Positions 6,212 through 40,389 of a DNA stretch of 40,785 nt are shown here, piece by piece (position 1 is the stretch's first letter; the number at the start of each line of letters is the position of its first letter). The notes below the pieces were generated by a model that made no database searches, had not been told where the DNA came from, and was given only the letters and a program-made list of their open reading frames with translations. Both the position numbers and the translations under genes were made by a program. Source of the stretch: Myxococcota bacterium (GTDB taxonomy: Bacteria > Myxococcota_A > UBA796 > GCA-2862545); contig JBLFXJ010000020.1 of assembly GCA_047609825.1 (NCBI GenBank), forward strand, positions 1 through 40,785, in the 5' to 3' direction.

Positions 6212-6238
6212 TTCCTGGCGTTCGGGTCTGGAGGCACG

Positions 6239-7096: not shown

Positions 7097-7098
7097 TC

Positions 7099-14904: not shown

Positions 14905-15713
14905 CACTCGGCCTCGGGCACCTGGATGCTGAACGCGGCCCAGTGGCTGGTCCAGGCGTCGCGTCCTGCGGCCTCGGCGGTGGTCGCCCGCAGGGTCCAT
15001 CGCCCAGGGGTGAGCGTGAACGTGGCGTGTCCCTTCCGGTCGGTCTGGTCGGCCAGAACCGCAGGAGTGGCCGCCTTGCCGAGTCGCTGCACGGCCTCGA
15101 CCTTCACATTGCGCACCGGCTCACCGTCTTGAAGCACGGTGAGCCCCAGCGGCCCCGGTCCGTCGAATGGGTTCGAGTGGAGCACGATCTCCAAGGTCTG
15201 CCCGACCACCTGGCTCCACACGGTGCCGCTGCTGTCGCCGTCCACCGCGAGCAGCACCTTCAGGGAGCGGTCGAAGGTGTCGGTCTGGGGCCCGTGCACG
15301 TGGGCGTGGCCGTCGTGCTCGTGCACGAGGTGGGTCAGGCCCTCCGACTCGAGGTGATGGGCGAAGGTCTCGGGGTCGAGCACCACCTCGGCAGCGGCCC
15401 GATCCAGCGTGAGCAGCGCCAGTCCAGGTGTGGCCGGAGCGGGGGTCTGCACGGCGGGGTTCGCGCGCCGGGGGTGGTCCGGGAGAAGGTCGGCGCGCCC
15501 GGCGGCGGTCCACAGCTCCAGGCGGGGGGTGCGCTCCTTCTCGAACGGGCGGATTTGCTCGATGTCGCCGTCGTCGCCCACCAGCAGCAGCATCCGCATG
15601 TCGGAGCCGGCGTCGGGGGTGAAGGTCTTCGGGAACAGCCAGTAGTCGTGTGCAGACGCGCTGGAGGCGAGCAGGAGGGCGAGCAACATGGGGCTCCGGG
15701 TGTTGCGGGTCAT
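14904..15713 (-). CDS. DUF4198-family periplasmic protein (of the type annotated as a nickel/cobalt-uptake component and found with TonB-dependent receptors)
   Basis: The signal peptide MLLALLLASSASA is followed by HDYWLFP, the characteristic mature N-terminus of DUF4198 proteins. It is the first gene of the operon, downstream of an AT-richer divergent promoter region. Confidence 0.6.
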   Translation of the reverse strand: MTRNTRSPMLLALLLASSASAHDYWLFPKTFTPDAGSDMRMLLLVGDDGDIEQIRPFEKERTPRLELWTAAGRADLLPDHPRRANPAVQTPAPATPGLALLTLDRAAAEVVLDPETFAHHLESEGLTHLVHEHDGHAHVHGPQTDTFDRSLKVLLAVDGDSSGTVWSQVVGQTLEIVLHSNPFDGPGPLGLTVLQDGEPVRNVKVEAVQRLGKAATPAVLADQTDRKGHATFTLTPGRWTLRATTAEAAGRDAWTSHWAAFSIQVPEAE

Positions 15714-15879: not shown

Positions 15880-17226
15880 ATGCTCCCGTTGCTGCTGGCG
15901 CTCGCCGCCCCCTCGTTCGCGTCATCTCACCGTGAGGCCCCGGCCATCACGCACGACCCCGCTGCGGACATCACCGACTTCTACATGTTCGTGTCCCCAG
16001 AGGACCCCTCCAAGCTGATCCTGATCATGAACGTCAACCCGCTCGAAGAGCCGGGTGGCGGTCCGAACTTCCACGGGTTCGACGATCTGGTGAAGTACAA
16101 CATCCACATCGACAACGAGGGCGACGGCCAGGAGGACATCACCTTCGGCTTCGTGTTCGAGTCCGAGTACCAGTACCCCGAGGAGTTCCTGTACAATCTG
16201 GGCGACATCAACGACCCGGCGTTCCTCAACCACCGCCAGCGCATGACGGCGGCGATGTGGACCGACGGCGCGCTGGATGTGCTCATCAGCGGCGGTGCCG
16301 ATGCGTTCGTCGCACCGGCCAACGTGGGCCATGTGAGCGGCGGCGACGGCGGCTACAACCCCATGTCGGCCAGCCCGGGCAGCCTCACCACCACGTACAC
16401 CCACCCCGCCGGGGAAATCCGGGTGTTCGCGGGTCCGCGCCAGGAGGGCTTCTATGTCGACCTGGGTCGCACGTTCGACCTGCTCGACCTCGCTGCCGGC
16501 GGTCACGAGAACACACTGCTCGGCAAGAACGTGCACACCATCGCGGTCGAGGTGCCCCTCGAGATGGTCACGCGCGACGGCGCGCTCCCCGATCCGGGGC
16601 TCCAGAACGAGGTGATCTCGGCGTGGGCCTCCACCACGCGTCCGCAGCAGCAGTACATCAACGACTCTGGCGTGCGCCTCACCCGCGGCCGTGAGATCCA
16701 GGTGGCGCGCCTCGGCATGCCGCTGGTGAACGAAGTCGCGATCCCGGTGGGCATGAAGGATCTGTTCAACGCCGGTCATCCCAGCGACGACGGTCGGTTC
16801 CTCAGCTACGTGACCGATCCGATCCTGCCGATCTACATGGAGGCCGTGCTCGGCGTGCCGAACCCGATCTCCCACGACGAAGGGCTGGGTATCGGCGGCC
16901 GGGAAGACCTGGTGCTGCTGTTCCTCACCGGCCACCCAGCACTGGGCACCCTGCCCGGTGGGTTCGAGCTCGGTGGGCCAATCCCCGGCGAGGTCGACAA
17001 GGTGTTCGGGGCGTTCGAGGCCCTGCGGATCAACCTGTCCACGCCGAGCGGCTTCCCGAATGGGCGACTCCCGGCCGATGATGTGGTGGACGTGGCCCTC
17101 GACGCGATGGCGGGGCTGTTGATCGACGGCACCATGATCGGCGGAGACGGCGTGGGTGCTGATGGACTTCACTACCTCGACGTGTTTCCGTTCCTCGGCG
17201 ACCCGTGGTCCGGCAACGCGGAGTAA
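15880..17226 (+). CDS. DUF4331-family secreted protein
   Basis: GGAGG lies 5 nt upstream of the ATG, and an in-frame TGA sits immediately upstream. The short signal peptide is followed by SSHREAP, the hallmark N-terminal motif of DUF4331. Confidence 0.7.
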   Translation: MLPLLLALAAPSFASSHREAPAITHDPAADITDFYMFVSPEDPSKLILIMNVNPLEEPGGGPNFHGFDDLVKYNIHIDNEGDGQEDITFGFVFESEYQYPEEFLYNLGDINDPAFLNHRQRMTAAMWTDGALDVLISGGADAFVAPANVGHVSGGDGGYNPMSASPGSLTTTYTHPAGEIRVFAGPRQEGFYVDLGRTFDLLDLAAGGHENTLLGKNVHTIAVEVPLEMVTRDGALPDPGLQNEVISAWASTTRPQQQYINDSGVRLTRGREIQVARLGMPLVNEVAIPVGMKDLFNAGHPSDDGRFLSYVTDPILPIYMEAVLGVPNPISHDEGLGIGGREDLVLLFLTGHPALGTLPGGFELGGPIPGEVDKVFGAFEALRINLSTPSGFPNGRLPADDVVDVALDAMAGLLIDGTMIGGDGVGADGLHYLDVFPFLGDPWSGNAE

Positions 17227-26067: not shown

Positions 26068-28920
26068 TTACCTCTCGCGGACAAACCGGCGGTCGAGCAT
26101 CGATATCGCCGTGCTCCGGCCAGTGCCGGGAGGGGTGGGCCGGAGATGTGCCCGGCCTGCGCTCTGCACCACCAAGCGGCCGTTGTCGAGCACGCGCTGC
26201 CGGTGGAACACGCTCATGTCGGTGAGCGTGGTGGCAGCGACCTCGGCCGCGAGCTGCGGCCGGCGGTCGAAGGTGGTGACGCCCAGCTCGAGGTCACGGG
26301 CGTACCGGGCTGTCCGGTCGTACAGCGTGTCGTCCCGCTTGGAGAGCTGCGCCACCAAGCCGTCTTGGATTGTGCGGAAGCGCTCCGCAGAAGTGTCGGC
26401 GAGCTCGGCCGGGAACGCCTCGTGGAATGCGTCGATGTGTCCGAGCAGGGCCTCGGGCCCAGCCACGGGTGACTGGATGCTGCACTGGAGCCCCGGCACC
26501 GTGTCGTGCCGGTGGTACGCGGCGTTCACCGAGTAGCCGAGCTGCTTGTCGGTGCGGAGCACGCGGAAGAAGGACGTGCGCACCAACGCGCCGAGCAGGA
26601 GCCAGCGGGCGGTCTCGGACACCGACGGCTCGGCCCCCTGCCAGGTGACCACGATGCTCGAGTCGTCGTGCTCGATGTCGAGGTCGACGAGCACGCTGTG
26701 GGCGGGGATCCGGCGAACGACCCGGTCGGGGCGGTGGGGCGCCGGCCCGCTCTCGCCGAGCACGCTCTGTACGAGAGCGCCCATGGCAGCAGCACGATCG
26801 GCCGGGAGGTTCCCGTGGGCGAGGGCGTCGACGGCCACGGCGCCGAACGCGCCATCGGCGAACCGGGTGATGTCGTCGACGGTGAGGGCGGAGAGCTGTT
26901 CGGCGCCCTCGACGAACGAGAAGTCCGTGGGGTCGAGCAGCTCGTGGGTGACCCACGAGGCCTGCCGGATCGGGTAGTCCTTGCCCGCGTTCCGCCACTG
27001 CCGGAGCAGGCGGTCCCGCTCTACATCGAATCGACGGGCGGTAGGTTGGAACGAACGAATGCGCTGAAGCACGGTGTCGAGCACCACCGGCTGCTTGTCG
27101 TCATACCCGGACACCTGGAGGAACAGGCCGTCGGAGGTCGGGGCGACGCCCACGCTCAGCCCGGCGCGGCCGAGGGAGTCGGTGAGTGGGGTGATGTCGT
27201 CGCGGAGCATCGCGGCGTAGAGCACGGTGGTGACGCGAGCGCGCAGGTCGGCGGTGGCGACGGGCAGCACCACCTGGGCGCGGAATGTGGCGCGTGGCAC
27301 GCGGAAGCTGATGTCGTGGTGGTGCCACACCCGGGTGCCCGGGTCGGATGTGACCAGGCTGGGTGCGGTGGCTGGCGAGGCTAGGGGGAGCAGGTCGAAC
27401 CGCTCAGCGACGTACGGATTCGGCGCGGGCAGGGTGAGTCCGGGGTCGATGGGACCGTCGGACCACCGCGCCAGGCACGCAGGCGAGAGTGGGGTGATCG
27501 ACCACGGCGTGCCATAGCGGCGCTCCTCCCGGTCGACGGTCGCGTCGGGTGCGGCGACGAACAAGCGCGCGTTGTGGGGGACCAGCAGCGCCAGGTAGCT
27601 GTGCACGACGCGGTGGTCGTACTCGCCCCACACCCAGGGCAGGTCGAGCAGGTGCGCTTCGGGAGCATCTCGCAGGCGCGCGGCGAGCACCCGCACCGCG
27701 TTCAGCGGCGCCGGGGGCTGATGGCAGTCGAACCCAATGGCCGCCACCTGGGCCTGCTCGTCGAACCACGGCGCGAGGGTGGGCGCTTGGCGGATGCGGC
27801 GGATGTACTGGAAGATCGCGTCGACCACGTCATCGAGGTGCGCGTAGCCATCGTGCGTGAGGGCCGCCCGGATGACGAACAGCCGGTGCGCTTCGTCGCC
27901 GTCCCGCCCGGTGGACAGGCCGGTGATCCACCCGCGCTCGCGGAGCCAGGCGTGGAGCGAGCCTGCGGTCTCCTGGCCGAGCAGGGTGCTGATCAGCTCG
28001 AGGGGACGCTCGCGGTAGTGGTCCCGGTCATGGGGCGTTGGGAACTCCAGCCGGAGCGAGCGCACCTCCACCAACGGGCGGAGCTCGACCCGCACGCCGA
28101 GCTGGTCGGGCAGGTATGGGGTCGCGGGCGGCGTCGGCGTCGAGAGCCGGGCGGGCACCTCGGCGAACCGGGCGCGCACCCAGTCTTCCAGGGTGTCGAC
28201 CGGCTCCCGGCCGAGCACGCACAGCGCCATCCGGTCGGCCGAGTATTCGCGCTCCCAGAACGCTCGCAGGTCGTCCCACACGGGCTGGCCGGGCCGGTCG
28301 GCGAGGGTGTGGCTGTCGCCCACCGAGAACTTCGCGAACCCGTAGGCCGGGTTGACCGTCTGCCGGCGCACCTCGCGGAATCGGCGCCCGTCGTCTCGCA
28401 GCTTGAGGCGGTACTCCGAGTCCACCGCTTCACGCTCGCGGGTGACGTAGGCGGGGTCGAGGGTGGGGGCGCAGAAGAAGCGGGAGAAGCGGTCGAGCGC
28501 GCCCTGCAGGTGAGGGTGGTCGATGCGGAAGAAGTACCGCGTGTTCTCCTGGCCCGTGCCCGCGTTGGTGGCGCCGCCGTGGTCTTCGACGAACCGACGG
28601 TAGGCGTCAACGTCGGGGTAGCGGTCGGTGCCCATGAACAGCATGTGCTCGAGGAAGTGGGCGAGGCCTTCCCGGTCGGGCGGGTCGTGGAACTGCCCCA
28701 CGCCCACGTCGAGGGCTGCGGCCGCCATGTCGGCGGCGGGGTCGGACACGAGCAGGGCCTCAAGCCCATTGGTCAGTCGGATCCGGCGATAGTCACGAGT
28801 GTCGAGTGGGCTCTGGCGCAGGGGGAGACCTCGGTGCGAGCGGTCGCAGTAACACCAGCACGCTTCCGCGGGGTTCCGTGTAGCTCTCCGGCCGGCTACC
28901 GGACGGGCATGTCGCGCCAT
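26068..28920 (-). CDS. M16 (insulinase/pitrilysin-like) zinc metallopeptidase with tandem M16 halves
   Basis: The inverted zinc motif is HxxEH (HFLEHMLFMG), and the protein is about 900 aa as in PtrA/PqqL-type enzymes. The N-terminal 35 aa are Arg-rich and there is no signal peptide. The ATG at 28920 overlaps the divergent Mo-oxidoreductase start, so the true start is uncertain. Confidence 0.75.
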   Translation of the reverse strand: MARHARPVAGRRATRNPAEACWCYCDRSHRGLPLRQSPLDTRDYRRIRLTNGLEALLVSDPAADMAAAALDVGVGQFHDPPDREGLAHFLEHMLFMGTDRYPDVDAYRRFVEDHGGATNAGTGQENTRYFFRIDHPHLQGALDRFSRFFCAPTLDPAYVTREREAVDSEYRLKLRDDGRRFREVRRQTVNPAYGFAKFSVGDSHTLADRPGQPVWDDLRAFWEREYSADRMALCVLGREPVDTLEDWVRARFAEVPARLSTPTPPATPYLPDQLGVRVELRPLVEVRSLRLEFPTPHDRDHYRERPLELISTLLGQETAGSLHAWLRERGWITGLSTGRDGDEAHRLFVIRAALTHDGYAHLDDVVDAIFQYIRRIRQAPTLAPWFDEQAQVAAIGFDCHQPPAPLNAVRVLAARLRDAPEAHLLDLPWVWGEYDHRVVHSYLALLVPHNARLFVAAPDATVDREERRYGTPWSITPLSPACLARWSDGPIDPGLTLPAPNPYVAERFDLLPLASPATAPSLVTSDPGTRVWHHHDISFRVPRATFRAQVVLPVATADLRARVTTVLYAAMLRDDITPLTDSLGRAGLSVGVAPTSDGLFLQVSGYDDKQPVVLDTVLQRIRSFQPTARRFDVERDRLLRQWRNAGKDYPIRQASWVTHELLDPTDFSFVEGAEQLSALTVDDITRFADGAFGAVAVDALAHGNLPADRAAAMGALVQSVLGESGPAPHRPDRVVRRIPAHSVLVDLDIEHDDSSIVVTWQGAEPSVSETARWLLLGALVRTSFFRVLRTDKQLGYSVNAAYHRHDTVPGLQCSIQSPVAGPEALLGHIDAFHEAFPAELADTSAERFRTIQDGLVAQLSKRDDTLYDRTARYARDLELGVTTFDRRPQLAAEVAATTLTDMSVFHRQRVLDNGRLVVQSAGRAHLRPTPPGTGRSTAISMLDRRFVRER

Positions 28921-30822
28921 GCCACCACCTGCCGTGTGTGCGAGTCCGCGTGCGGGCTCGTGGCGGAGGTGCTGCAGGGCGAGGTGGTGTCACTCACGCC
29001 GGACCGGGACCACCCGGTGTCGCGCGGGTTTGCCTGCGTGAAGGGCACACGATTCCACACCCGGGTGCAGCGGCATGCGGACCGGGTGGTGCGGCCGCGG
29101 CTCGGCCGGGGCGTTCTCACGCCCGTGGGCTGGACTGAGGCGCTGGGCGAGCTGGGGGGGCGGATCGCGGCAATTCGCGCCGAGCATGGGCCCGACGCAG
29201 TTGCGCTGTACTCGGGCAACGCGGCGGGCCACTCCCTCGGCGCGGTCCTGGGGCTGGCCGCACTCCAGCGTGGGCTCGGTACCCAGCGGCACTATTCCTG
29301 CCTCACCCTGGACAACAGCGAGCAGTTCGTGGTCGCGGAGGAGGTGTTTGGCAGCGCGATGAGCACCTTTGTCGCGGATTATGAGGGCTCGGACGGCATC
29401 TTGCTGATCGGCACGGATCCGCTGTCGAGCCAGCCGAGCCAGTCTCAGTCGCACCCCACCGGCCCGCGCGAGCTGCGGCAGGGGGCGGCCCACCTGTGGG
29501 TGGTGGATCCGCGGCGCTCTGTCACCGCGCGCGCGGCTGCGCTTCACCTCGCACCCCGGCCGGGAACCGACGTGTTCCTGCTCGCGTGGCTCGTGCGGGA
29601 GGCGCTGGCCCAGCGCTCGGGACCGGCGGCGCTGGCGGCGGCGGTGGCTCCGTTCGACACGCCACGGGTCGTCTCCGCGACCGGCCTGTGCAGTGCGGCG
29701 TTGGTGGATCTGCGGGATCGGCTGCTCGCTGCGGACCGTCCGCTGGTGTGGTCCGGCCTCGGGGTCCTGCTCGGACCCCACGGCACTCTGGGCTGGTGGC
29801 TCACGGTGTGTCTGCAGGGCGTGCTCGTCGGCTTCGACACGCCCGGGGGCTGGCGGTGGCAGCCCGGACCGGTGGGGTTGGCCCGGCTGGCCCCATGGTT
29901 GGGGATCCGCGGTCGCGACCCTGATCTGCGGAGCTCGGACGGTCGGTTTCCGGCGGTGCTCGGGACGCTGGCGGCGGCGACTCTTCCGGGAGACATCCGG
30001 TCGGGCGCGGTGAAGGCGCTGGTGGTCGTCGGTGGGGACCCGGCCCGCGCGCTGCCCGGGAGCGACGCCTCGGCCGCACTCGCAGCGCTCGATCTGCTCG
30101 TGTGCGTCGACCTGTTCATCAACCGGACCGGGGAGCTGGCTGACGCTGTTCTGCCCGCCGCCACCTGGCTCGAGCGGGACGCCGCGGGGCTGCACACCGC
30201 GCACCAGCGCCGGCGGGGGTTCGTGCGGGTGGACCGGGCCGTCGTGCCGCCGCGGGGGGAGGCCCGCACCGACTGGCGCATCCTCGCCGACCTGTGTCGG
30301 GCGGCCGGGCGCCCGCTGTTCGGCAGCCGCGTGCTCGACCGCCTGCTGCCGGCAGATCCGGCGGCGGCACTGTCCCGCGCGGTCGCCGGCCTCCGGGGCG
30401 GTTCGTCCACTCCCGCCGGGTGGCGTGGGGTCGCTCGCCTGGACGTTCCGGAGTTCCTCTGCGCTCTTGCCGCAGTGCCCGACCCGTCGCCCGGGCTCCG
30501 CATGGTGACGAGTGTGCGGCCGCTCCGCACGATGAACCACTGGCTCCGCGACGGCAGCAGTCCAGCGACCGCTCACCCCGACACCCTGCCGGCCGGACCG
30601 TGCACCCTCGAGGGCCCTGGCGGACGCCTTCGTGTGGTGGTCGAGTCCGACCCCACCCTCGCACGGGATGTCGTCGTGGTGCCGTTCGGCGGTGATCCGA
30701 ACCCCAACGCCCTCGTCGGCACGCACTCCCTGGAAGCGTTCACCGGTCAGCCGTGGTCCAACGGGACCGTGGTGCGGGTGGTGGTAGAACGTGATCTCGC
30801 GAACATGGGCGCTCCCTCGTAG
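28909..30822 (+). CDS. Molybdopterin-dependent oxidoreductase (MopB superfamily: assimilatory nitrate reductase / formate dehydrogenase-like) with an N-terminal 4Fe-4S motif
   Basis: The N-terminus is MSRHATTCRVCESACG...GFACVKG (C-x2-C-x3-C...C). The C-terminal molybdopterin-dinucleotide-binding signature is FINRTGELADAVLPAATWLERD. No partner electron-transfer subunit is adjacent. Confidence 0.75.
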   Translation: MSRHATTCRVCESACGLVAEVLQGEVVSLTPDRDHPVSRGFACVKGTRFHTRVQRHADRVVRPRLGRGVLTPVGWTEALGELGGRIAAIRAEHGPDAVALYSGNAAGHSLGAVLGLAALQRGLGTQRHYSCLTLDNSEQFVVAEEVFGSAMSTFVADYEGSDGILLIGTDPLSSQPSQSQSHPTGPRELRQGAAHLWVVDPRRSVTARAAALHLAPRPGTDVFLLAWLVREALAQRSGPAALAAAVAPFDTPRVVSATGLCSAALVDLRDRLLAADRPLVWSGLGVLLGPHGTLGWWLTVCLQGVLVGFDTPGGWRWQPGPVGLARLAPWLGIRGRDPDLRSSDGRFPAVLGTLAAATLPGDIRSGAVKALVVVGGDPARALPGSDASAALAALDLLVCVDLFINRTGELADAVLPAATWLERDAAGLHTAHQRRRGFVRVDRAVVPPRGEARTDWRILADLCRAAGRPLFGSRVLDRLLPADPAAALSRAVAGLRGGSSTPAGWRGVARLDVPEFLCALAAVPDPSPGLRMVTSVRPLRTMNHWLRDGSSPATAHPDTLPAGPCTLEGPGGRLRVVVESDPTLARDVVVVPFGGDPNPNALVGTHSLEAFTGQPWSNGTVVRVVVERDLANMGAPS

Positions 30823-30888
30823 ATTTCTCCCCCCTGCGAGCCGCATGTCGCGTATTGTCCCGGCATCGATCCCATTTCTGGAGCCCTC

Positions 30889-31596
30889 ATGCGTCGTCCC
30901 ATCCTGCTCGCGTTCGTCCTCGCCTCCACCGGCTGCGCCATCTCGGCCGGCCAGACCGCCCGCACGAACGGTGAGGGCAATGTGCAGTTCGGCGTGGAGC
31001 CGGGCGTGCTCGGCGCTTCCACCGGCGGCTTCGTCGGGGTTGCGCCCGCGCTGAACCTGGCGGTGCGGTACGGCGTGAGCGACACGGTGGACCTCGGCGG
31101 GCGGCTGGGCACCAACGGCCTCGAGTTCCAGACAAAGTTCCAGGTCACCGGTGACGATGGCGTGATCGTCTCTCCTGCGCCGTCGCTCGAGGTGTGGTTC
31201 TTGTCGATCGGGGGCGTGGGCGGCGGCTTCGTCGGTGTGCCGCTGCCGCTCCTGATCGACGTGCCCGTCGGCGAGTCGGCACTCGTCATCGGGCCGCGCG
31301 TCCATCCCCGGTTCCTCTTCGGGGGCGGCGGTGGGGCCACCGCGAGCTCGCTCAGCATGTCGGCTGGGTCGACCCTGGGATTCGCCGCGAAGGTCAGTGA
31401 TGGCGTGAAGATCTTCCCGGAGTTCGGGTTCGAGATCCCACTGTTCGCCACCGCCTCAGGCACGACGACGACGACGACGACGGGCACGGGCACGGGCACG
31501 GGCACCACGACCACCACCACGTCCACCGCGGGCAGCGGCGTCGGCGGGATGATCTTCGACTTCAGGGTCAACATCCTGATCGGCAAGACCAAGTAG
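30889..31596 (+). CDS. Lipoprotein with a Thr/Gly low-complexity tract, possibly a beta-barrel
   Basis: There is a GGAG RBS. The lipobox is LASTGC. The tract T7(GT)4T6 is present and the C-terminus ends ..FDFRVNILIGKTK. Confidence 0.5.
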   Translation: MRRPILLAFVLASTGCAISAGQTARTNGEGNVQFGVEPGVLGASTGGFVGVAPALNLAVRYGVSDTVDLGGRLGTNGLEFQTKFQVTGDDGVIVSPAPSLEVWFLSIGGVGGGFVGVPLPLLIDVPVGESALVIGPRVHPRFLFGGGGGATASSLSMSAGSTLGFAAKVSDGVKIFPEFGFEIPLFATASGTTTTTTTGTGTGTGTTTTTTSTAGSGVGGMIFDFRVNILIGKTK

Positions 31597-31607: not shown

Positions 31608-34600
31608 TCAGCCCTTGGAGCCGCTGGCCAGGTCGGCCACCGCGCTCGCCACGCTCCGCCTCAGGTCTGAGACGAAGGCGTCGTGTAGCTCGGCGGGCAG
31701 CCGCGCCTTGGCGCTGGCCGCCATGTGCACGGTGAGGATCTCCACGACGCTGAGGGCCGCCGCGAGCGTTGAGTCGTCGCCGGCATCCACTGGTCGGATG
31801 TCGTTGTTCAGCGCCCGCTGCGCCTGGCCGAGCAGCTTCTGGCGGCTCTCCGCCATGCTGCGATGCACCGGCGTGGGGCCAGGCGGGAGTGTTGCGGCTG
31901 CCGGGGCGGCCGCCCGCTCCTGGAGTGCCGTGCGCAGCCCCCGGAGCTCGTGCAGCACGTCGGTGAGCGTGGCGTCGCTGCCGCCACCGGACTGTGCCAG
32001 CGCCTGGTGGATGGCCTGCAGCGGCTCCACCATGGACTGGACGCCGGGGATCTCGCCCCGCTGAACGCCCTGGAAGTGCCGCGCGATGAACCCGATGCCG
32101 CGCTCCACCTTGTCGAGCTCCAGAGCGGGGCGTGCCTCGAGGGTGGTGGCGATGGTGGACAGCGCCGCCACGAGCCCAGCCAGCCGCTCCTCGGTGCCGG
32201 CCCCGCTGGTGAGCACCTCGCGGATGCCGGCCAGCTCCTGGGACGCGCCGCCGGTGGTGAGAGTGAGGGCGTCGCGGATGCCGGTGAGGTTGTCGTCCAG
32301 CCGGGCGAGCTGCGTGGGCACAGCATCGCCCGTGAGCTTGTCGCCCAGGTGGACGAGGTTCTGGGCCATTCCCGAGAGCACCCCGGTGACCCGGGCCACG
32401 GGGTCATCGTCGCCACCACCCATCAGCTGGCGTCGGCGGTATTCCTCACGGATCTTGCCGAGTCGCTGGGCCTCTTCGTCGGTGAGCAGGCCGCGGAGCT
32501 CGGCGAGACGGAGCAGGTTGTACTCCGCACCGGTGGTCAGCGTCTGGGCCTCGCCGCGGTAGTGGTCGGAGATGACCTCGAGCACCTCGTCCGGGGTGAG
32601 CGCAGGCACGATCTTCTCGGCGAGCTTGTTCATGTTCCGGTACGAACCCTGGAGCTGGAACCTCGGCTCGGTGCGGAACGCATCCTCCATGGCGGCGGAC
32701 CGGATGTACTCGGCGTTCACCTTCAGGAGCACATCCCGGGCGGTGAACAGGTGGGCGAAGGTGCCGCGGATCTCGTTCAGCTCTACGGCCGAGTAGTCGT
32801 GGGACAGCTCGCTCGGGCTGATCTCCTCCCCGGCTGCCATGCGGATGAGGGTGTACACATCCTTCTGGGGCCGGGCAGCCAGCGGCTGCAGGGCAGGGTT
32901 CGAGGTGAGCCCGTTCTCGAGGAATGACAGGGCGAACACGTCCTCGCGCCCGCCGAGCACATCGCCCAGGTTGTAGGTGTCGGCGCGGTTGGCGAGCATG
33001 TCGGGGATCTGGAACTTGTCGCCGGTCTCGGTGTACGGGTTGCCCGCCATCACCACGGCGAACTTCTTGCCCCGGAGGTCATAGGTGCGGGTGCGGCCAT
33101 TCCACACGCCCTCGATGCGCCGGCTGGCGTCGCACAGCGAGATGAACTTCTGGAGGAACTCGGGGTTCGTGTGCTGGATGTCGTCGAGGTAGAGCATGAC
33201 GTTGTTGCCCATCTCGAGCGCCAGGTTCACCTTCTCCACCTCCTGCCGGGCCGTGGCATTGGGGGCCTCGCTGGGGTCGAGCGACTCGACGGAGTGGCCG
33301 AGCGCGGGTCCGTTCACCTTGACGAACACCAGCCCGAGCCGGCTCGCGATGTACTCCATCAGGGTGGTCTTGCCGTAGCCGGGCGGTGAGATGAGCAGCA
33401 GCAGGCCCATCAGGTCGGTGCGCTTGCCGGCGCCGGACGCGCCCATCTGCTTGGCGAGGTTGTCGCCCACCAGGTGCAGGTACACGTCGCTGATCAGCTT
33501 GTTGCGTACGAACGCGGTCATCACCTTGGGCTGGAACTCGTCGACCCGGAGGGTGGTTCGCCAGTGCTCCACCAGCGCGGTGCGGCGCTCGCGGTAGTCC
33601 CGGAAGCCTGGCACTCGCTCATGGTCGAACCGCTGGAGCCGCTCGACGAACTCGGACAGACGCAGGTCGAGCCGGCGCTCGACCACCCGTGGATGCTGGC
33701 CGAGCAGGCCCTCCACGGTGGTGGCGCCCGTGCCGCCCGACACGTCGGCGTCGATGGTGCGCCCTACGAGCAGCATCGTGGCCGCCTCGGCGGCGACCGG
33801 AGCCAGTGCGGTGTAGCGCTCGTCGTCGGTGTTCTGCGCGAAGGTCTCGAGCCAGGCCTGCTTGATGGTGAACCGCAGGTCGAGGCGGTCGGCGAGGGGG
33901 CGCAGGGCGTCCTCGAAGCGCATGCTCCCGCCGTGGTCCTCGAGCCACCGGAGGAGCCCGTCCCGCAGCTCGGCGGCCTCCTGGCCGAACACGAACCGCA
34001 CGGGCTGGCGCGCGAGCACTTCGAACAGGTACTGGCCAGCGAGCGCGCCCTGGGCCGCCACCCACGACCCGTCGGGGTCGAAGCCAGCGTCGGCGTGCCA
34101 GGTGGTGAGCGACGCGGTGAGGTGGTCGACGAACCGGGTGAGCGCCGGCGACAGGCCCAGGGCGTCGCGCAGCTTGGCGAGGGATCGGGCCTGGGCGACC
34201 CACCCCTCTGCGGGCTTGTCCTCACAGAACGCCCAGTACAGGGTGGCGAGGGTGCGCGCTGTGCTCGGGAACCGGAGGAGGTCGGCGGTCTTGCGCAGGC
34301 CGACCAGTGCTTGGAGGATACGCACGGCGTCCGCGTCGTGGATCCCTCGGTCATACCCCTCTTCATAGCGATTGGCGGCGTAGGTGCGCACCGTCTCGAG
34401 CAGCCGCCCTTCCTGCAGCACCGCCGCTTCCAGCTCAGCGATGGACAGCCCCGCGCGCCCGGCCTCAGCATCCGAGAGCAGGCAGTAGGCGAGGTACTCC
34501 GAGCGGTACACCTCGCTCGTCTCCGAGATCACCGTCTGTGACCAATACGGACGGGTGGCGGCGAACTCCGGGTCGTCGACCGACTGGTGGAAGTCCGTGC

Positions 34601-37283
34601 CGGTGAGGTGCAGCGCCACGGCGTCGCCCTTCGGCACCAGGGTCATCTCGAGGGGCTGGGTGTTCACGCTGAACCGGTGCTTGCCGAACCGCACCAGGTT
34701 GCTGTCGCCGTCGAACAGGTCGATCTTGTCGCGCAGTCCGCGGAGCGCGTCTTGCTTCGCCGACTTCAGCTTGGATCGGAGCTCCTCGGCCTTCACCGAA
34801 TCGCCGAGCCCGTCGAGCTGGTCGCCCAGACTTCCGAGCTTGAGCACCATCGGGTCGGAGGCGAAGTAGGTGTTCAGCTCGTCTTCGGCCTTGAACGCGC
34901 GGGACCGGCGCTGCACGCCCTGGACGATGCGGTTGGCGGCCGTCATCAGGGCGTCGATGCGCCGGTTGCGCTCGTCGACCAGGGTCTGCTTGCGCCCGCT
35001 GAACGCTTGGTACACCTCGTCGCGCTTGTCGGCGAGATCGGGCAGGAACTCGTCGAAGTCGCCGAACCGCGCCTCAAGCTCCTCGAGCTGGAGCAGCAGC
35101 TTGGACAGCTGGTCGTCGCACGCCTCGGGGGAGTCGCACAGCGCGAGCGCGGACTGGACCGACTGGCCGAACAGCTTGAACTGCGCGACGAACTCGGCCC
35201 GGCCCTCGGCGGTCCTCAGCTCCTTGGTGCGGTTGGTGAGGACCGCACGCACTCGGTTGGCGTGGGAGAATACTTCGCCGATCTGGTCGAGGATCACCGT
35301 CTTTCGGGTGGGATCCTCCACCTCGATGCCGGCGACGACCTCGGCGAGCAGGTTCACGCCTCCGCTGGTGGTGTCGAGCTGCTCGGTGAGCGGCGCGAGC
35401 TCGGTGGCCTTGCTCACCGCCTCGATCTCGACGAGCAGCGCGTCGAGAGCGGTGCGCAGGGGCTCGAACGCAGCGTCACCCTCGAGGAATCCGATGGCGT
35501 CGCGGCTCACCTTGTCGAACCGCTCCACGGCCTCGGCCTCGAGGGCGTCGAGCACCTCGAGGTCGACGTACCGGGTCTCCTTCAGCGTGATCAGGTGGCC
35601 GCGGTGGGTGCGGAGCGCGGTCATCGCGCCGAGGAACTCGTCGATCCGCTTGAAGTACTCGGTGCGCACATCGGTGAGCAGCTTGGCGTGCTCGGCCTTG
35701 GCGGTCCGCAGCACCTCCTTCGCCCGGGCCTTCAGGGTCTGGACCTTGATGAACTCGTCGATGATCAGCTCGGCCGTACGCCGCACATCCTCCACGACCG
35801 CGCGGAGGTTGCCGACTCCGGCGTCCGCCGCCCAGTAGTAGGCATCGGCGAACCGGTTGCACGCGCCGACCAGCTCCTCGTACATCGCCCGCGTGGGCTC
35901 CTGGTTGCGGGTGAGACGCACCAGGGTGAACGCGTCCGAGATGCCGCGCACCAGCTCCTTGTTGCCGATCCGGCCGAGCAGGGAGTCATCGGTGGGCGCG
36001 GCCTCGTAGGCCTCGGGCGACATGAACGGCGTCTGCCACACCTGCATCGGGTGCACGCGGGTGGGCTCCGGCGTCGCGCGGAACACGACCAAGGTGCCGT
36101 CTTCGAACAGGCTGTAGCCGGAGCACTGGATGGGGGTGGCGACCTCTTTCCGGATCAGGTTGTACGGGTACAGCGCGTACTGGCCCTCGTCTCTCCGGTG
36201 GAAGACGTACATCACATCTTCGCCGTTCGGCGCGTGGATGGCGCGCACGAACTCGAGGTCGTCGATGCCCTCCTGCTCGAAGACCTTGTACTCACCGTCG
36301 CGGAGGTAGTACCCGCCAGGGAACAGGATTCCGTGGTCTTCGGGGAGCGAGACGCACGAGTGCCCGATGGTGTCGATGCGCAGCACGTGCCGGGTGTTGA
36401 TGTTGTACACCAGGTACCGGAAGGCCTCTTCCCGGTAGGGCCGGACCTTGAGCAGCACCAGGGCGCCCCGGCGGGCGTAGTGGATTGTTGCGTCGTCGAG
36501 TGACTGGTTCGGGTCGTTCACCGCCTCGGAGTAGATGCCTTCGCCATCTTCTGTGTTGTTATCGACCTTGATCGTGAGATCTCCGCCGACGGTCTCGACG
36601 AACACCAGGTCGAGTACGTTCACGTGGGGGTGGCGCCCGCGCACATGGTCTTCGCGGGTGGTAGCCGTCCATTCGAAGTCGTGGGTCGGCGGGAACACGT
36701 GGTCCCGCTCGCCGCGGCTGTCGATGTAGGTGGTGGTGCCGTCGGGGTCGACGGCCCAGCGGAGAACCTTCACATCCCGCGCGGTGGCGCCGGTCTGGAA
36801 CACGGCGAGCAGCTTGGTCTCGGTGACCCGGAGCTGGATGAGCCGGGCGTCCTTGTAGTACTGGTACAGCTCGCCGAACTCCCGCACGAAGGTGCGGTCG
36901 GTGAGGAATTCGAGCTTGGACTCCTCCTGCACCGCGTGGAAGCCGAAGCCCCCTTCGGCGCGCTCGAACTTCTGCAGGGCGAGCACGTCGGCGGCGGTGA
37001 TCTGCCGCTTCAGGCCGATGTGGACGTTGTAGCCGAACAACAGCTCGCCGCCGACCTGGACGATGTCCACCGGTACGCAGTTGTTCTCGGTGCGCACGCG
37101 CTCGTTGCCGAGGATGGCGAGTTCGGTGCTACCGAACGCACCCTCGCGGCGGTCGTTGAGGGCCGCGGTGGAGGTGTGCAGCGTGTCGCCGAGCCCGCTG
37201 AGACGGGTTCGGATCACGTCGTAGTTGCCGCCCTCGAGCGCATCTGCGGGTTGCGGTGTGGCGGGGGTCTGCGCGTCGGACAT
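31608..37283 (-). CDS. Giant (1891 aa) multidomain protein with a central MoxR/AAA_5-type AAA+ ATPase core; family unknown
   Basis: It is a single uninterrupted ORF with good codon usage. Walker A is LLISPPGYGKTT and Walker B is VMLYLDD. Sensor-1 is AVVMAGNP. A degenerate second P-loop-like GASGAGKRT lies 12 aa upstream. The N-terminal ~430 aa are beta-rich. The N-terminal third has a long coiled-coil-rich region, and the C-terminal ~350 aa are Ala/Leu-rich and helical. Confidence 0.75.
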   Translation of the reverse strand: MSDAQTPATPQPADALEGGNYDVIRTRLSGLGDTLHTSTAALNDRREGAFGSTELAILGNERVRTENNCVPVDIVQVGGELLFGYNVHIGLKRQITAADVLALQKFERAEGGFGFHAVQEESKLEFLTDRTFVREFGELYQYYKDARLIQLRVTETKLLAVFQTGATARDVKVLRWAVDPDGTTTYIDSRGERDHVFPPTHDFEWTATTREDHVRGRHPHVNVLDLVFVETVGGDLTIKVDNNTEDGEGIYSEAVNDPNQSLDDATIHYARRGALVLLKVRPYREEAFRYLVYNINTRHVLRIDTIGHSCVSLPEDHGILFPGGYYLRDGEYKVFEQEGIDDLEFVRAIHAPNGEDVMYVFHRRDEGQYALYPYNLIRKEVATPIQCSGYSLFEDGTLVVFRATPEPTRVHPMQVWQTPFMSPEAYEAAPTDDSLLGRIGNKELVRGISDAFTLVRLTRNQEPTRAMYEELVGACNRFADAYYWAADAGVGNLRAVVEDVRRTAELIIDEFIKVQTLKARAKEVLRTAKAEHAKLLTDVRTEYFKRIDEFLGAMTALRTHRGHLITLKETRYVDLEVLDALEAEAVERFDKVSRDAIGFLEGDAAFEPLRTALDALLVEIEAVSKATELAPLTEQLDTTSGGVNLLAEVVAGIEVEDPTRKTVILDQIGEVFSHANRVRAVLTNRTKELRTAEGRAEFVAQFKLFGQSVQSALALCDSPEACDDQLSKLLLQLEELEARFGDFDEFLPDLADKRDEVYQAFSGRKQTLVDERNRRIDALMTAANRIVQGVQRRSRAFKAEDELNTYFASDPMVLKLGSLGDQLDGLGDSVKAEELRSKLKSAKQDALRGLRDKIDLFDGDSNLVRFGKHRFSVNTQPLEMTLVPKGDAVALHLTGTDFHQSVDDPEFAATRPYWSQTVISETSEVYRSEYLAYCLLSDAEAGRAGLSIAELEAAVLQEGRLLETVRTYAANRYEEGYDRGIHDADAVRILQALVGLRKTADLLRFPSTARTLATLYWAFCEDKPAEGWVAQARSLAKLRDALGLSPALTRFVDHLTASLTTWHADAGFDPDGSWVAAQGALAGQYLFEVLARQPVRFVFGQEAAELRDGLLRWLEDHGGSMRFEDALRPLADRLDLRFTIKQAWLETFAQNTDDERYTALAPVAAEAATMLLVGRTIDADVSGGTGATTVEGLLGQHPRVVERRLDLRLSEFVERLQRFDHERVPGFRDYRERRTALVEHWRTTLRVDEFQPKVMTAFVRNKLISDVYLHLVGDNLAKQMGASGAGKRTDLMGLLLLISPPGYGKTTLMEYIASRLGLVFVKVNGPALGHSVESLDPSEAPNATARQEVEKVNLALEMGNNVMLYLDDIQHTNPEFLQKFISLCDASRRIEGVWNGRTRTYDLRGKKFAVVMAGNPYTETGDKFQIPDMLANRADTYNLGDVLGGREDVFALSFLENGLTSNPALQPLAARPQKDVYTLIRMAAGEEISPSELSHDYSAVELNEIRGTFAHLFTARDVLLKVNAEYIRSAAMEDAFRTEPRFQLQGSYRNMNKLAEKIVPALTPDEVLEVISDHYRGEAQTLTTGAEYNLLRLAELRGLLTDEEAQRLGKIREEYRRRQLMGGGDDDPVARVTGVLSGMAQNLVHLGDKLTGDAVPTQLARLDDNLTGIRDALTLTTGGASQELAGIREVLTSGAGTEERLAGLVAALSTIATTLEARPALELDKVERGIGFIARHFQGVQRGEIPGVQSMVEPLQAIHQALAQSGGGSDATLTDVLHELRGLRTALQERAAAPAAATLPPGPTPVHRSMAESRQKLLGQAQRALNNDIRPVDAGDDSTLAAALSVVEILTVHMAASAKARLPAELHDAFVSDLRRSVASAVADLASGSKG

Positions 37284-37363
37284 GGGTGCCCTGGGGTGGT
37301 GGCGGGCCAGACGGACGCCCCCCGCTCAGGTGAGCGAGGGGCGAGAGCGGGTGTGGGCCGGCA

Positions 37364-37382
37364 GGCGTGCGGAGCGCACGCC
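37364..37382. other. GC-rich hairpin (8-bp stem, 3-nt loop) in the 119-bp gap between the flotillin and giant ATPase genes
   Basis: The stem is GGCGTGCG gag CGCACGCC. No U-tract follows it. Confidence 0.35.
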
Positions 37383-37402
37383 CGACGGCGGAGAGCCGAG
37401 GC

Positions 37403-39538
37403 TCAGGCGTCGGTGCTGTCGGTGCTGCTGTCGCCCGCGATGCGCTTCTTCACAGCGTCGAGCACGCCCTTGGCTGCAGGGGACTCGGCGAGGAAGCCGT
37501 CCAGCGCCTTGCCCACGCTCGCCGCCTGGACCAACTTGTCGAGGAACTGGCCGTCGCCGCCCATGATCTGGATGTCGGCGTTGCCGAATGCCTCCCCGAG
37601 CACCTTGGCCTGCTCCGCCGCGACGGCCATCTGCGCCTCGATGGCAGCGAGCCGGATGGTCTGGTCGTGCTCCAGTTGGATGCGGAACTCCTCGTGCTCG
37701 CGCGCCGCGCCTTCCATGGCCTGCATCGCCTCGAGCTTGGCCTTGAGACCTGCGGCCTCGGCGGACATCCGCTCACGGATGGAGGTCGCCTCGGCCAGTC
37801 CGGCCACCTCGATCACGCGCGCGTCGGCCTCCTTGCCCTTCGCCATCGCGAGCAGCTCCTTCTCCAGCGCATCGGCGCCGGCGGACTTGCCCTCGGCCTC
37901 GGCCAGCAGCCGGGCCCGGATGGACGCGCCCGCAGCCTCGCCCTGCTTCTGCACCGCGGCCGCATCGGCTTCCTTGCCCTGCGCCTCGGCCACGGCCTTC
38001 TCACGGATGAGCTGCGTCTCGAGCTCGATCTCGCGCTGGCGCACCTTCATGCGGGCCATGCCGCGGTCTTCCTCGCCCCGGGCCTGGGCCTGGGCCTTCT
38101 CCACATGCACCCGCGCCTCGGCCACGCCCTCCTTCTCCATCGCGATGGCGTTGGCCTCGCGCACCTTCACGTCGGCCATGCCCTGGGCGGCCACCTCGGC
38201 TTGCGTACCCTCGGCGAGCCGGATCTGGGCCTTGGCTGTACGCTCTGCCGCTTCGAGGTCGGCGTTGGCGAGCACGACCTTCTCCCGGGCCTTGAACTCG
38301 GCGACCTTCTCGTCGGCCTCGGCCTCCTTGATGGTCTTCACGAGGTTCTCTTCGGCCTCACCCTGGGCGCCGATGATCGCCACGTCCTTCTTCCGGTTGG
38401 CCTCCGCATGCACGCGGAGATCCTTGATGCGCTCCTCCTCTTCGGCGACGTTCTTGTCGACGACGATGCGGCCCCGCACGACCTCGGCGATCTCCTTCCG
38501 CTTGACCTCGAGCTCCATCTCCTTGTCGATCTCCTGGCGCTCCACTTCGCGCTGGCGGGAGATCTCCTCGATCTGACGGTCGCGCTCGACCTGCTCGGAC
38601 TTGATGGCCACGACGCGCTCGCGGTCTTTGTCGGCCACCTCGACCTGGCGCTGCTTGTTCAGCTCGCCGATCTGGATCTCCTCTTCCGACTTGATCCGGG
38701 CGATCTGGGCGCGCTGGTTCTCTTCGGACTGCACCTTGGAGGTCTCGGCGGCCTCGCGTGCCTTCACGGTCTCGATCTCGCGCTGCTGCTTGGCCTCAGC
38801 GTCGGCCCGACGGCGCTCGAGCTCCAGGATCGCCTCGTCCGCCTCGAGGTTCTGCCGGGTGACCTCCTTGCGCTCGTTCTGCCGGAGCTGGTTGGTGAGC
38901 ACGTTCTGCTCGGCGGTCATCTGGGTGATCTTCCGGATGCCCTGGCTGTCGAGGATGTTGTCCTTGTCGAGCTTCTCAATCGGCGTCTGCTCGAGGTAGT
39001 CGATGGCGGCGTCTTCGAGAGCGTAGCCGTTGAGATCGCGGCCGATCACGTCGATGATCTGGTCCTTGAAGTCATCGCGCTGGGTGTACAGCTGCTCGAA
39101 CTCGAGCTGCTTGCCGACGGTCTTCAGTGCCTCGGAGAACTTGGCGACGAACAGCTGCTCCAGGGTGTCCTGGTCGCTGGCGCGCTTGCAGCCGATGGAC
39201 TGGGCCACCTTCAGCACGTCTTCCTTGGTCTTGTTCACCCGCACATAGAAGCTGACCTTGATGTCAGCGCGGATGTTGTCGTGGCAGATCAGGCCTTCGT
39301 GGCCGGACCGCGCGATCTCGATGGTCTTGACCGAGATGTCCATCACCTCGGAGCGGTGGATGATCGGCAGCACGACGGCGCCCGTGAACGTAACGTCGGG
39401 CTCGTTGCTCATCTTGTTGACGATGAGGGCATTGCCCTGGTCCACCTTGCGGTAGAACCGGGCGACCATCATCGCCCCCCCTCCGAGGATGACCAAGAGA
39501 GCGACTACGCTGGCGACAGCGAGCAAAACGATTTCCAT
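37403..39538 (-). CDS. Flotillin-family (SPFH/Band-7, YqiK/FloT-like) membrane protein with a very long E/A/K/R coiled-coil
   Basis: An N-terminal TM helix is followed by an SPFH domain (..VVLPIIHRSEVMDISVKTIEIARS...DNIRADIKVSFYVRV..) and about 450 aa of EA-repeat coiled-coil. A GGAGG RBS lies inside the 3' end of the upstream gene. Confidence 0.85.
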   Translation of the reverse strand: MEIVLLAVASVVALLVILGGGAMMVARFYRKVDQGNALIVNKMSNEPDVTFTGAVVLPIIHRSEVMDISVKTIEIARSGHEGLICHDNIRADIKVSFYVRVNKTKEDVLKVAQSIGCKRASDQDTLEQLFVAKFSEALKTVGKQLEFEQLYTQRDDFKDQIIDVIGRDLNGYALEDAAIDYLEQTPIEKLDKDNILDSQGIRKITQMTAEQNVLTNQLRQNERKEVTRQNLEADEAILELERRRADAEAKQQREIETVKAREAAETSKVQSEENQRAQIARIKSEEEIQIGELNKQRQVEVADKDRERVVAIKSEQVERDRQIEEISRQREVERQEIDKEMELEVKRKEIAEVVRGRIVVDKNVAEEEERIKDLRVHAEANRKKDVAIIGAQGEAEENLVKTIKEAEADEKVAEFKAREKVVLANADLEAAERTAKAQIRLAEGTQAEVAAQGMADVKVREANAIAMEKEGVAEARVHVEKAQAQARGEEDRGMARMKVRQREIELETQLIREKAVAEAQGKEADAAAVQKQGEAAGASIRARLLAEAEGKSAGADALEKELLAMAKGKEADARVIEVAGLAEATSIRERMSAEAAGLKAKLEAMQAMEGAAREHEEFRIQLEHDQTIRLAAIEAQMAVAAEQAKVLGEAFGNADIQIMGGDGQFLDKLVQAASVGKALDGFLAESPAAKGVLDAVKKRIAGDSSTDSTDA

Positions 39539-39543
39539 CGAGG

Positions 39544-40389
39544 CTACTCCTCCGAGAGAGACTTGTTGCGGGTTGTGGCGGCCTGGGCTGCCAGGGACTG
39601 ACCGGCACGCGCCGGGGCCCCGAGTGGAGCGGTGAGGGGCTCGATGACGAACGCCTCACGCTTGCGGTCGAACGACACGATCAGGGCGCGCTGGCCCTTT
39701 CGCAGGGTGTTGTCAGCCGTGTCGCAGCGCACCTGGAACAGCAGGTCGTCGCCGCCGACCATCGCGATGGCCTGACCGAATCGGCCGTCGACGCGGCCCG
39801 TGGTGATCTCGCACGCCTCGCCGACGAGGGAGTTGCGCTCGCGGGCGTGGGCCACCTTGAACACCGGCTCGACCGGGCGGGTGGCCACGTTTGTGAATGC
39901 GGTGGCGAGGAGCGATGCCGTGAGGAAGATCAAGGCGCCGAGCACGGCTCCATGCAGCGCGACGCTGGCCTGGAGTGCGGTCCAGGTGAGCAGGAAGCTG
40001 GTGAACCAGCCGCCGAACACGAACAGGGACAGGGTGATGGTGGCGGGCACCCGGCCGAGCCGGAGGGCGTTCGCGATGAACTTGAGCGCGCTGAAGCTCT
40101 CGGCGGAGCCGTCCATGTCGGCGTCGAGGTCGGTGTCGGCCTCCACGGCGCCGTCGATGGCATCGGCGGCGCCGTCTACGGCACCATCCATCGCTCCATC
40201 GAGCGCGCCGTCGATGGCACCGTCCATCGCGCCTTCGAGGCCCTCGCCGGCACCGTCGAGCACGCCGTCCATCAGGTCGATGTCGGCCGCGCCGAGCATC
40301 ACGGTGACCCAGTACAGCAGCACCAGGCCGAGCGAGACCGAGAACACGATCGTGGGGAAGGAGACCAGAATGTCGAAGAAACCCTGCAT
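39544..40389 (-). CDS. YqiJ/NfeD-like inner-membrane protein (the flotillin partner) with a DGAxD pentapeptide repeat tract
   Basis: TM helices flank an acidic (GAMDGAIDGALDGAMDGAVDGA..) repeat region. The C-terminal soluble domain resembles the NfeD OB-fold-like domain. It lies immediately upstream of the flotillin gene with a 5-bp gap, as in E. coli yqiJK. Confidence 0.6.
   Translation of the reverse strand: MQGFFDILVSFPTIVFSVSLGLVLLYWVTVMLGAADIDLMDGVLDGAGEGLEGAMDGAIDGALDGAMDGAVDGAADAIDGAVEADTDLDADMDGSAESFSALKFIANALRLGRVPATITLSLFVFGGWFTSFLLTWTALQASVALHGAVLGALIFLTASLLATAFTNVATRPVEPVFKVAHARERNSLVGEACEITTGRVDGRFGQAIAMVGGDDLLFQVRCDTADNTLRKGQRALIVSFDRKREAFVIEPLTAPLGAPARAGQSLAAQAATTRNKSLSEE

Follow-up and report, generated by a model that had tools for sequence, protein, structure and literature searches.

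A flotillin operon with a giant MoxR-class ATPase in a Myxococcota bacterium: a further example of a widespread and co-inherited module

What is a giant AAA+ ATPase doing directly behind the genes of a flotillin and its small membrane partner? The question is raised by contig JBLFXJ010000020.1 of a Myxococcota bacterium (GenBank assembly GCA_047609825.1), which was analysed over its entire length of 40.8 kb, has a GC content of about 70% and is referred to as the window in the following. Three genes on its minus strand encode a YqiJ-like protein with three transmembrane helices, a YqiK-type flotillin of the SPFH type and the giant ATPase, and together they are one operon that probably encodes a membrane-proximal machine. 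The giant is a dedicated, co-inherited partner of the flotillin/YqiJ-like pair. An earlier note on this DNA had already taken the three genes for a single module, which is supported by their order, their strand and the conserved neighbourhood, but had not recognised it as a described system; it is one, as the operon, including its abbreviated form, was published before (Ravi, Anantharaman, Aravind, Gennaro et al., 2024, mSystems, PMC11237479). The window is a clean further Myxococcota example of a published, widespread and experimentally uncharacterised module and not a discovery.

How strict is the coupling between the giant and the flotillin? A pattern scan over one genome per GTDB species found relatives of the giant in at least 561 genomes, from which the best 80 loci were retrieved, and neighbourhoods were counted by tblastn for the flotillin and by all-against-all clustering of open reading frames (ORFs) over these 80 loci plus the window (n = 81). 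According to tblastn all informative loci (79 of 79) have the flotillin gene directly upstream of the giant gene and in the same orientation, the remaining locus having no upstream DNA; conservation of the neighbourhood, which the earlier note had named as a point to be checked, thus extends over several phyla. The clustering, which was unsupervised, revealed only two families conserved around the giant, the flotillin (80 of 81 loci) and the YqiJ-like protein (75 of 81). The order is always yqiJ, flotillin, giant, and most of the six loci without a YqiJ-like gene are cut off upstream. A fourth conserved operon gene was rejected on the basis of the same clustering, which yielded lineage-specific additions only (PspA, DUF2170 and phospholipase D, PLD). 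In a single locus, that of Myxococcales bacterium 68-20 (around positions 3446-10001), flotillin and giant are not adjacent and are found some 6.4 kb apart, presumably due to an insertion.

Myxococcota, Actinomycetota, Gamma- and Betaproteobacteria and Planctomycetota are represented among the 80 loci. Plasmids show the same gene order, namely one of Hymenobacter (Bacteroidota), a megaplasmid of Deinococcus, linear plasmids of Streptomyces and the Pseudomonas fluorescens megaplasmid pQBR103. Moreover, the pairwise distance matrices of giant and flotillin correlate with r = 0.93 in a Mantel comparison, a value reached in none of 999 permutations, and therefore the two genes travel and diverge together. 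Protein identity across phyla amounts to 45-57%, which is unusually conserved, and the giant of the window shares 42% identity with the Hymenobacter protein over 86% of its length.

The operon was described in silico by Ravi and colleagues in one paragraph. Its long form combines CesT/Tir-PspA with YqiJ/YuaF, a band-7/flotillin protein and a beta-propeller/coiled-coil AAA+ ATPase, with or without an HKD PLD, and abbreviated operons without PspA were found to have a broader distribution and may cooperate with a PspA whose gene is located elsewhere (PMC11237479). The authors predicted a role in sub-membrane dynamics for this association, proposed chaperone-like roles for the band-7 and AAA+ partners of PspA, and drew a comparison with Vps4 for AAA+-linked PspA/Snf7 operons in general; their Table S3 contains a Dokdonia example of this architecture, and the Hymenobacter operon has the same architecture. 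The abbreviated operon contains the same three proteins as the window, with the same domain architectures and in the same order, and agrees with it on all four points by which membership was judged. Nothing essential differs, the window being the copy of a Myxococcota metagenome-assembled genome in which neither PspA and CesT/Tir nor PLD is linked to the triad. Added here to the published description are the Pfam identity of the giant (DUF3686/DUF7902), its assignment to the MoxR/dynein class, the spectrin-like rod, an invariant motif in the middle region and the linkage figures given above.

To which family does the giant belong, and what does it look like? The earlier note had called the family unknown, but the protein turned out to be a textbook member of the DUF3686/DUF7902/AAA family, for which more than 5,741 homologues were found, many of them named 'DNA repair ATPase' by NCBI. 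Pfam matches cover DUF3686 at residues 35-483 (E 5.3e-200), DUF7902 at residues 605-688 (E 4.5e-23) and AAA_5/AAA at residues 1295-1418 (AAA_5 E 3.5e-7), an architecture common to all 120 homologues listed. Family members range from 1,569 to 2,125 residues in length, and among 744 cluster representatives (50% clustering) DUF3686 occurs solely at the N-terminus of proteins of 1,600-2,000 residues. Hydropathy analysis gave no convincing transmembrane segment in the giant, indicating a soluble protein.

The N-terminal domain starts with a helix (residues 19-50), which is followed by about 28 beta strands (residues 56-417) modelled by AlphaFold2 with a per-residue confidence (pLDDT) of about 85-95. 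These strands are predicted to form a beta-propeller, since Foldseek retrieved WD40 and other propeller proteins, among them DCAF1 (probability 1.0), prolyl oligopeptidases, the clathrin terminal domain and IFT-A, with moderate scores. The helical rod that follows resembles spectrin-type three-helix bundles and not an alpha-solenoid according to the fold search. Clathrin heavy chain, IFT-A and ROD likewise have an N-terminal propeller followed by a helical rod (Foldseek E 3e-7 to 1e-3), but TM-scores are low, so that the resemblance is architectural only, with no sign of common ancestry or coat formation.

The middle region, most of which has a pLDDT above 90, comprises a small beta domain (residues 863-901), a helical domain, a small beta sheet (residues 1179-1208) and long linker helices; it gave no Pfam family match, and the fold searches assigned no fold to it. 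Within its helical domain the motif R-Y-x-E-G-Y-x-R-G-x-H-D-x-D (residues 972-985) is invariant in alignments of 20 and of 61 sequences, and its content of histidine, aspartate, arginine and tyrosine looks like that of a binding or catalytic site and not of a purely structural element. Positions 34326-34370 of the window (minus strand) encode residues 972-986 and cover this motif. The C-terminal tail is poorly conserved in the alignment, except for the last 60 or so residues, which are moderately so.

The single AAA+ module is of the MoxR/dynein/midasin class. With 30.7 bits the AAA_5 match lies above its cut-off of 22, and the closest structural neighbours of the module lie in the MoxR/AAA_5 (dynein-midasin-MoxR) clade, the nearest being the MoxR maturases CbbQ and NorQ. 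A beta-hairpin insert precedes sensor 1 in the AlphaFold2 model (about residues 1388-1403), and a MoxR-like 'IPDMLANRAD' with R1433 is present; as to a helix-2 insert, the DSSP string shows a conserved loop and not a clear hairpin between beta2 and alpha2. A canonical Walker B motif hhhhDE with a catalytic glutamate is not found, D1367 and D1368 being invariant in 20 sequences. Pfam and fold searches, together with the AlphaFold2 model, agree with the architecture proposed in the earlier note, a beta-rich N-terminal domain, a long helical stretch, one core of the MoxR/AAA_5 type and a helical C-terminus; of the motifs it had quoted, LYLDD and AGNP are correct, but the Walker A motif reads SPPGYGKTT and not GPPGYGKTT. 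As compared to the MoxR ATPases CbbQ, NorQ and RavA and to dynein and midasin, the giant carries a single module placed after about 1,290 unrelated N-terminal residues and has a Walker B motif with DD, and its sequence similarity to AAA+ proteins of known structure is confined to the P-loop.

The identity of the two membrane proteins is of different clarity. The flotillin consists of an N-terminal transmembrane anchor (residues 3-21), an SPFH/Band_7 domain (residues 31-175), a coiled-coil rich in glutamate, alanine, lysine and arginine (about residues 200-650, some 450 charged and alanine-rich residues) and a short conserved C-terminal segment. The full-length protein gave no Pfam match; when residues 1-246 were searched separately, Band_7 (PF01145) was detected with an E-value of 9e-12, and the Pfam 'Flot' domain was undetected in both searches. 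In BLASTP, 420 residues could be aligned with E. coli YqiK (29% identity, E 4e-41), and judged from its sequence the protein is a YqiK-type flotillin. Flotillins linked to a giant are uniformly long (620-753 residues), while E. coli YqiK, which has no such neighbour, has 553 residues.

Hydropathy places the transmembrane helices of the YqiJ-like protein at residues 7-25, 116-134 and 143-161, followed by a soluble C-terminal domain at about residues 170-250, and the protein was typed as a YqiJ/YuaF-like (DUF1449-type) inner-membrane protein. Its identification through Pfam or PDB profiles failed, and only a profile-profile comparison succeeded: a profile of 33 orthologues matched E. coli YqiJ with an hhalign probability of 94% and an E-value of 1.4e-7 over 130 columns including the C-terminal soluble part. 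Pfam YqiJ_N matched the protein of the window weakly (E 0.047) and one of the 33 orthologues with an E-value of 8.8e-5; the Hymenobacter orthologue is annotated as DUF1449. For NfeD, there was no Pfam match in the protein of the window or in the 33 orthologues and no NfeD structure in the PDB profile search. The likeness to the E. coli yqiJ-yqiK pair that the earlier note had pointed out is therefore borne out for both proteins, and of its wording 'YqiJ/NfeD-like' the first half stands, the second half lacking an OB-fold-level match in the Pfam and PDB searches. The loop between the first two helices (residues 35-98) is acidic, with about 60 residues of D-G-A-x repeats encoded at positions 40096-40287 on the minus strand (GAMDGAIDGALDGAMDGAVDGA...), in part by a 12/36-nt tandem repeat (40161-40254); it could serve cation binding or vary in length from strain to strain.

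How are the three genes arranged? The ORFs reproduce exactly the coordinates of the three minus-strand genes given in the earlier note, and all three have a GC content at third codon positions (GC3) of 0.88-0.92, as in true genes of this contig. The TAG stop codon of the yqiJ-like gene (39546-39544) is separated by 5 bp from the ATG of the flotillin gene (39538), and both this gap and the ribosome-binding site of the flotillin within the yqiJ 3' end, as the earlier note had it, were read directly (Table 1). The giant is the final gene of the unit, as the ORF with coding GC3 downstream of it (30889-31596, plus strand, GC3 0.88) lies on the opposite strand and is convergent; this ORF of 235 residues has no Pfam match and no homologue among the 80 related loci. 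A minus-strand ORF overlapping it (30747-31592) is probably a shadow and was rejected as a fourth operon gene, as a homologue was found in 0 loci and the convergent frame is the one with coding GC3.

Between flotillin and giant lies the 119-bp gap that had been noticed earlier together with a hairpin; the gap was recovered as described, and it contains not one but two strong GC-rich hairpins. The spacer folds with a free energy of -63.4 kcal/mol (z -3.73), and none of 200 shuffled sequences was equally stable. In related loci the same gap has a median of about 70 bp and is often close to 0. Neither a T-tract/U-tract terminator nor a sigma-70-like promoter was found on the minus strand of the spacer, and the hairpins were rejected as a known RNA element, there being no credible Rfam match, canonical terminator or sigma-70 promoter. 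The spacer may be an attenuator within the operon or an mRNA-stabilising element that sets the ratio of flotillin to ATPase.

Table 1. Features of the flotillin operon in the window, listed in the direction of transcription
Feature	Position	Strand	Basis or remark
YqiJ-like protein with three transmembrane helices, 281 aa	39544..40389	minus	ORF call
GGAGG ribosome-binding site of the flotillin gene	39549..39553	minus	inside the yqiJ-like 3' end, 10 nt before ATG; direct reading
YqiK-type flotillin, 711 aa	37403..39538	minus	ORF call
Spacer, 119 nt, two GC-rich hairpins (~37357-37389, ~37316-37343)	37284..37402	minus	RNA folding
Giant AAA+ ATPase, 1891 aa	31608..37283	minus	ORF call
DUF3686 domain of the giant, aa 35-483	35835..37181	minus	Pfam, AlphaFold2, Foldseek
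Helical-bundle rod of the giant, aa 484-857 (helices from aa 441)	34713..35834	minus	DUF7902 at nt 35220-35471
Conserved middle region of the giant, aa 858-1289	33417..34712	minus	AlphaFold2, alignments
Single AAA+ module of the giant, aa 1290-1620	32424..33416	minus	Walker A/B, sensor 1, lid and helical domain
Walker A SPPGYGKTT, aa 1299-1307	33363-33389	minus	translation
Walker B LYLDD, aa 1364-1368	33180-33194	minus	translation
Sensor 1 AGNP, aa 1413-1416	33036-33047	minus	translation
Variable helical C-terminal tail of the giant, aa 1621-1891	31611..32423	minus	AlphaFold2, pLDDT 40-70 for most

A link to membrane stress is provided by the neighbours of the triad in other lineages. DUF2170/YjfI and PspA/IM30 genes (PspA_IM30 E 6e-53) precede it in 11-14 gammaproteobacterial loci, and a gene of the HKD phospholipase D family (PLDc_2) follows it in nine retrieved loci, eight of them gammaproteobacterial and one from Aquabacterium. 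On the Hymenobacter plasmid the order is Tir chaperone, PspA, DUF1449, flotillin and giant, and on the megaplasmid pQBR103 of P. fluorescens SBW25 (record 85112-97641) the triad is joined with a complete yjf-type PspA/polyamine cluster, reading PspA/IM30, rhomboid protease, DUF2491, DUF350, DUF1190, GspS (glutathionylspermidine-synthase-like), yqiJ-like, SPFH and 'DNA repair ATPase'. The long form of Ravi and colleagues was thus recovered independently in Pseudomonas, other Gammaproteobacteria and Hymenobacter. In the window itself CesT/Tir and PspA do not lie immediately upstream: tblastn for PspA and DUF2170 (CesT/Tir) over the 40.8 kb gave best E-values above 1, and only about 400 bp of the contig are left upstream of yqiJ, so that such a gene may lie just past the contig end. 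An operon-linked PLD was likewise rejected for the window, the sole PLD-like gene (3825-5405) being located 26 kb away and outside of the operon.

Several known systems share parts of this design. In E. coli yqiJ-yqiK and B. subtilis yuaF-floT, a small multi-transmembrane protein is likewise followed by an N-terminally anchored flotillin made of SPFH domain and coiled-coil, but in E. coli no giant ATPase is found downstream, sibD/ibsD following yqiK; the flotillin of the window is about 130-160 residues longer than E. coli YqiK and its YqiJ-like protein too diverged for Pfam. The HflK/C-FtsH and prohibitin-m-AAA protease systems follow the same logic of an SPFH scaffold coupled to a membrane AAA+ ATPase (references for HflK/C via PMC13086221). 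As compared to the FtsH systems, however, the giant has neither a protease domain nor a transmembrane anchor, belongs to the MoxR/dynein-like clade and adds propeller and rod, making this an analogy and not homology. With ESCRT-III/PspA/Vipp1 and Vps4 the module shares the genetic coupling of an AAA+ ATPase to a membrane-bound scaffold that assembles itself, PspA being linked in several lineages, but the scaffold is here of the SPFH and not of the ESCRT-III fold, and the giant is not Vps4-like, since it lacks an MIT domain and falls into another AAA+ clade.

What could such a machine do? Most likely, the system is an ATP-driven remodeller or chaperone of flotillin assemblies that is at work when the membrane is under stress. 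Cages are the oligomeric form of SPFH proteins, as in QmcA-YbbJ with its 26 heterodimers, and oligomerisation is promoted by the NfeD partners (PMC13086221). It could be imagined that the flotillin and the YqiJ-like protein form an oligomer on the cytoplasmic side of the inner membrane, like such solved SPFH-NfeD complexes, on which the giant would dock via propeller and rod and oligomerise via its AAA+ domain. The energy of ATP hydrolysis would then be spent on building, opening or recycling the flotillin scaffold, or on loading and extracting its clients, within a response that counters envelope stress or repairs the membrane and would act together with a PspA homologue whose gene lies at another place of this genome. 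The spacer hairpins would probably reduce expression of the ATPase as compared to the structural proteins, so that the ATPase would be sub-stoichiometric. The overall picture of a flotillin/YqiJ assembly with a giant ATP-driven machine in envelope stress or membrane repair we consider reasonably probable; we are far more confident about the partnership of the giant with the flotillin pair and far less so about its specific action on the flotillin scaffold. The ATP-driven scaffold or remodelling machine at flotillin microdomains envisaged in the earlier note is a reasonable hypothesis.

As a rule, MoxR-class ATPases act together with a VWA/MIDAS partner. This and other points weigh against the proposed remodeller: 1) such a partner is absent, as no third conserved family flanks the triad in the 81 loci and the giant contains no VWA match; 2) the invariant DD in place of DE in Walker B may mean that the ATPase is slow or regulatory; 3) the two stable hairpins between flotillin and giant could act as a terminator and lead to separate expression of the giant; 4) neither PspA nor CesT/Tir is found in the 40.8-kb contig, so that for the window the link to stress rests on other lineages; 5) literature searches for DUF3686, for 'DNA repair ATPase' with flotillin and for SPFH with MoxR returned no experimental work on any member of the module.

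A more elaborate version of the remodeller could be imagined, in which the giant is a hexamer of about 1.25 MDa with six spectrin-like, propeller-tipped arms that grip flotillin cages, an ATP-driven machine of a sub-membrane coat or skeleton that opens, moves or recycles flotillin domes in membrane repair. This version is speculative, and we regard it as improbable.

Alternatively, the giant may be an assembly chaperone of the MoxR type that matures, inserts or extracts other membrane-protein clients, with flotillin and YqiJ-like protein merely as docking platform. The proximity of its AAA+ module to the maturases CbbQ and NorQ would fit, as would the chaperone-like roles proposed for band-7 and AAA+ partners of PspA (PMC11237479) and the reported stabilisation of unfolded proteins in membrane microdomains by flotillin-NfeD complexes (PMC13086221). 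However, neither a conserved client gene nor a VWA/MIDAS adaptor accompanies the triad, and the strict 1:1 co-inheritance (r = 0.93) and the lengthened flotillin point to the flotillin itself as partner or substrate, leaving the client chaperone as a rather unlikely explanation.

It could also be asked whether the triad is a conflict or anti-phage module of the abortive-infection type, in which flotillin and giant would sense that the membrane is perturbed during infection, with the HKD enzyme or other effectors acting downstream. Such a role could explain the patchy distribution within genera, with the module on pQBR103 and in some Pseudomonas but not among the SPFH loci of P. aeruginosa PA14 listed in PMC13086221, its occurrence on megaplasmids and the linkage of an HKD/PLD-superfamily gene in some Proteobacteria. 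Membership in a known defence system was nevertheless rejected: PADLOC yielded P-loop-level matches only for the giant (mad8 3.9e-4, IetA 2.6e-3) and none for the flotillin or the YqiJ-like protein, no phage-encoded homologues were found, and the flanking genes are not defence genes. Furthermore, 45-57% identity across phyla is unlike fast-evolving conflict systems, and the recurrent partners are PspA and polyamine stress genes. A defence function thus appears very unlikely to us.

That the giant is a DNA-repair ATPase as its database name says, and its adjacency to the flotillin incidental, is the weakest proposal and hardly credible, since Pfam's description of DUF3686 as 'ATPase involved in DNA repair', the NCBI name and weak RuvB_N and RuvB matches face the facts that these matches span about 45 residues around Walker A and stay below the cut-offs (21.9 vs 27 bits and 22 vs 282 bits), that Pfam, other profile and PDB sequence searches detected neither a DNA-binding nor a nuclease or helicase domain in the giant, that the sole conserved neighbours are two membrane proteins (flotillin in 79 of 79 loci), and that our literature search found no paper linking the family to DNA repair. 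A helicase or SMC-like reading was rejected on the same grounds, RuvB and RFC matching in the P-loop only and far below cut-offs and the PDB searches giving nothing else; the literature search also found no paper that mentions DUF3686 or ties 'DNA repair ATPase' to flotillin. The label is probably misleading.

Elsewhere on the contig, two lipid-acting enzymes are encoded next to each other at a distance of about 26 kb from the operon. The first (1466-4051, plus strand) is an NTE-like protein that combines cNMP-binding, NTE P-loop and patatin phospholipase domains, the second (3825-5405, plus strand) is the PLD-like HKD protein, and both are unlinked to the flotillin module in other genomes. 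As the longest ORFs of these two genes overlap by about 230 nt, the start of the second is probably located further downstream. Closer to the operon lie an M16 (insulinase/PqqF-like) peptidase gene (26068-28920, minus strand) and, divergent from it, a molybdopterin oxidoreductase gene (~28900-30822, plus strand); an ORF of 771 residues overlapping the latter (28990-31305, minus strand) matched nothing in Pfam and resembles a high-GC shadow. A 984-residue HEAT and cNMP-binding protein (7099-10053, minus strand), a DUF4331 protein (15880-17226, plus strand) and a DUF4198 protein (14904-15713, minus strand) have no apparent tie to the module.

What does the module mean for the biology of flotillins? 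The function of bacterial flotillins is still debated, and a defined partner that consumes energy is, to our knowledge, missing for them. Here a flotillin/YqiJ pair is strictly coupled to a huge, conserved MoxR-class ATPase and co-inherited with it in at least six phyla, and in several lineages the module adjoins PspA, the bacterial ESCRT-III-like membrane-repair protein. Should the improbable hexameric coat or skeleton machine prove true, it would be a prokaryotic functional counterpart of the scaffold-plus-uncoating principle of ESCRT-III and Vps4, and the giant would be the first defined energy-consuming partner of bacterial flotillins. The well-studied megaplasmid pQBR103 is a convenient experimental entry point, and the module offers a genetic handle on how flotillin assemblies are built, opened or recycled.

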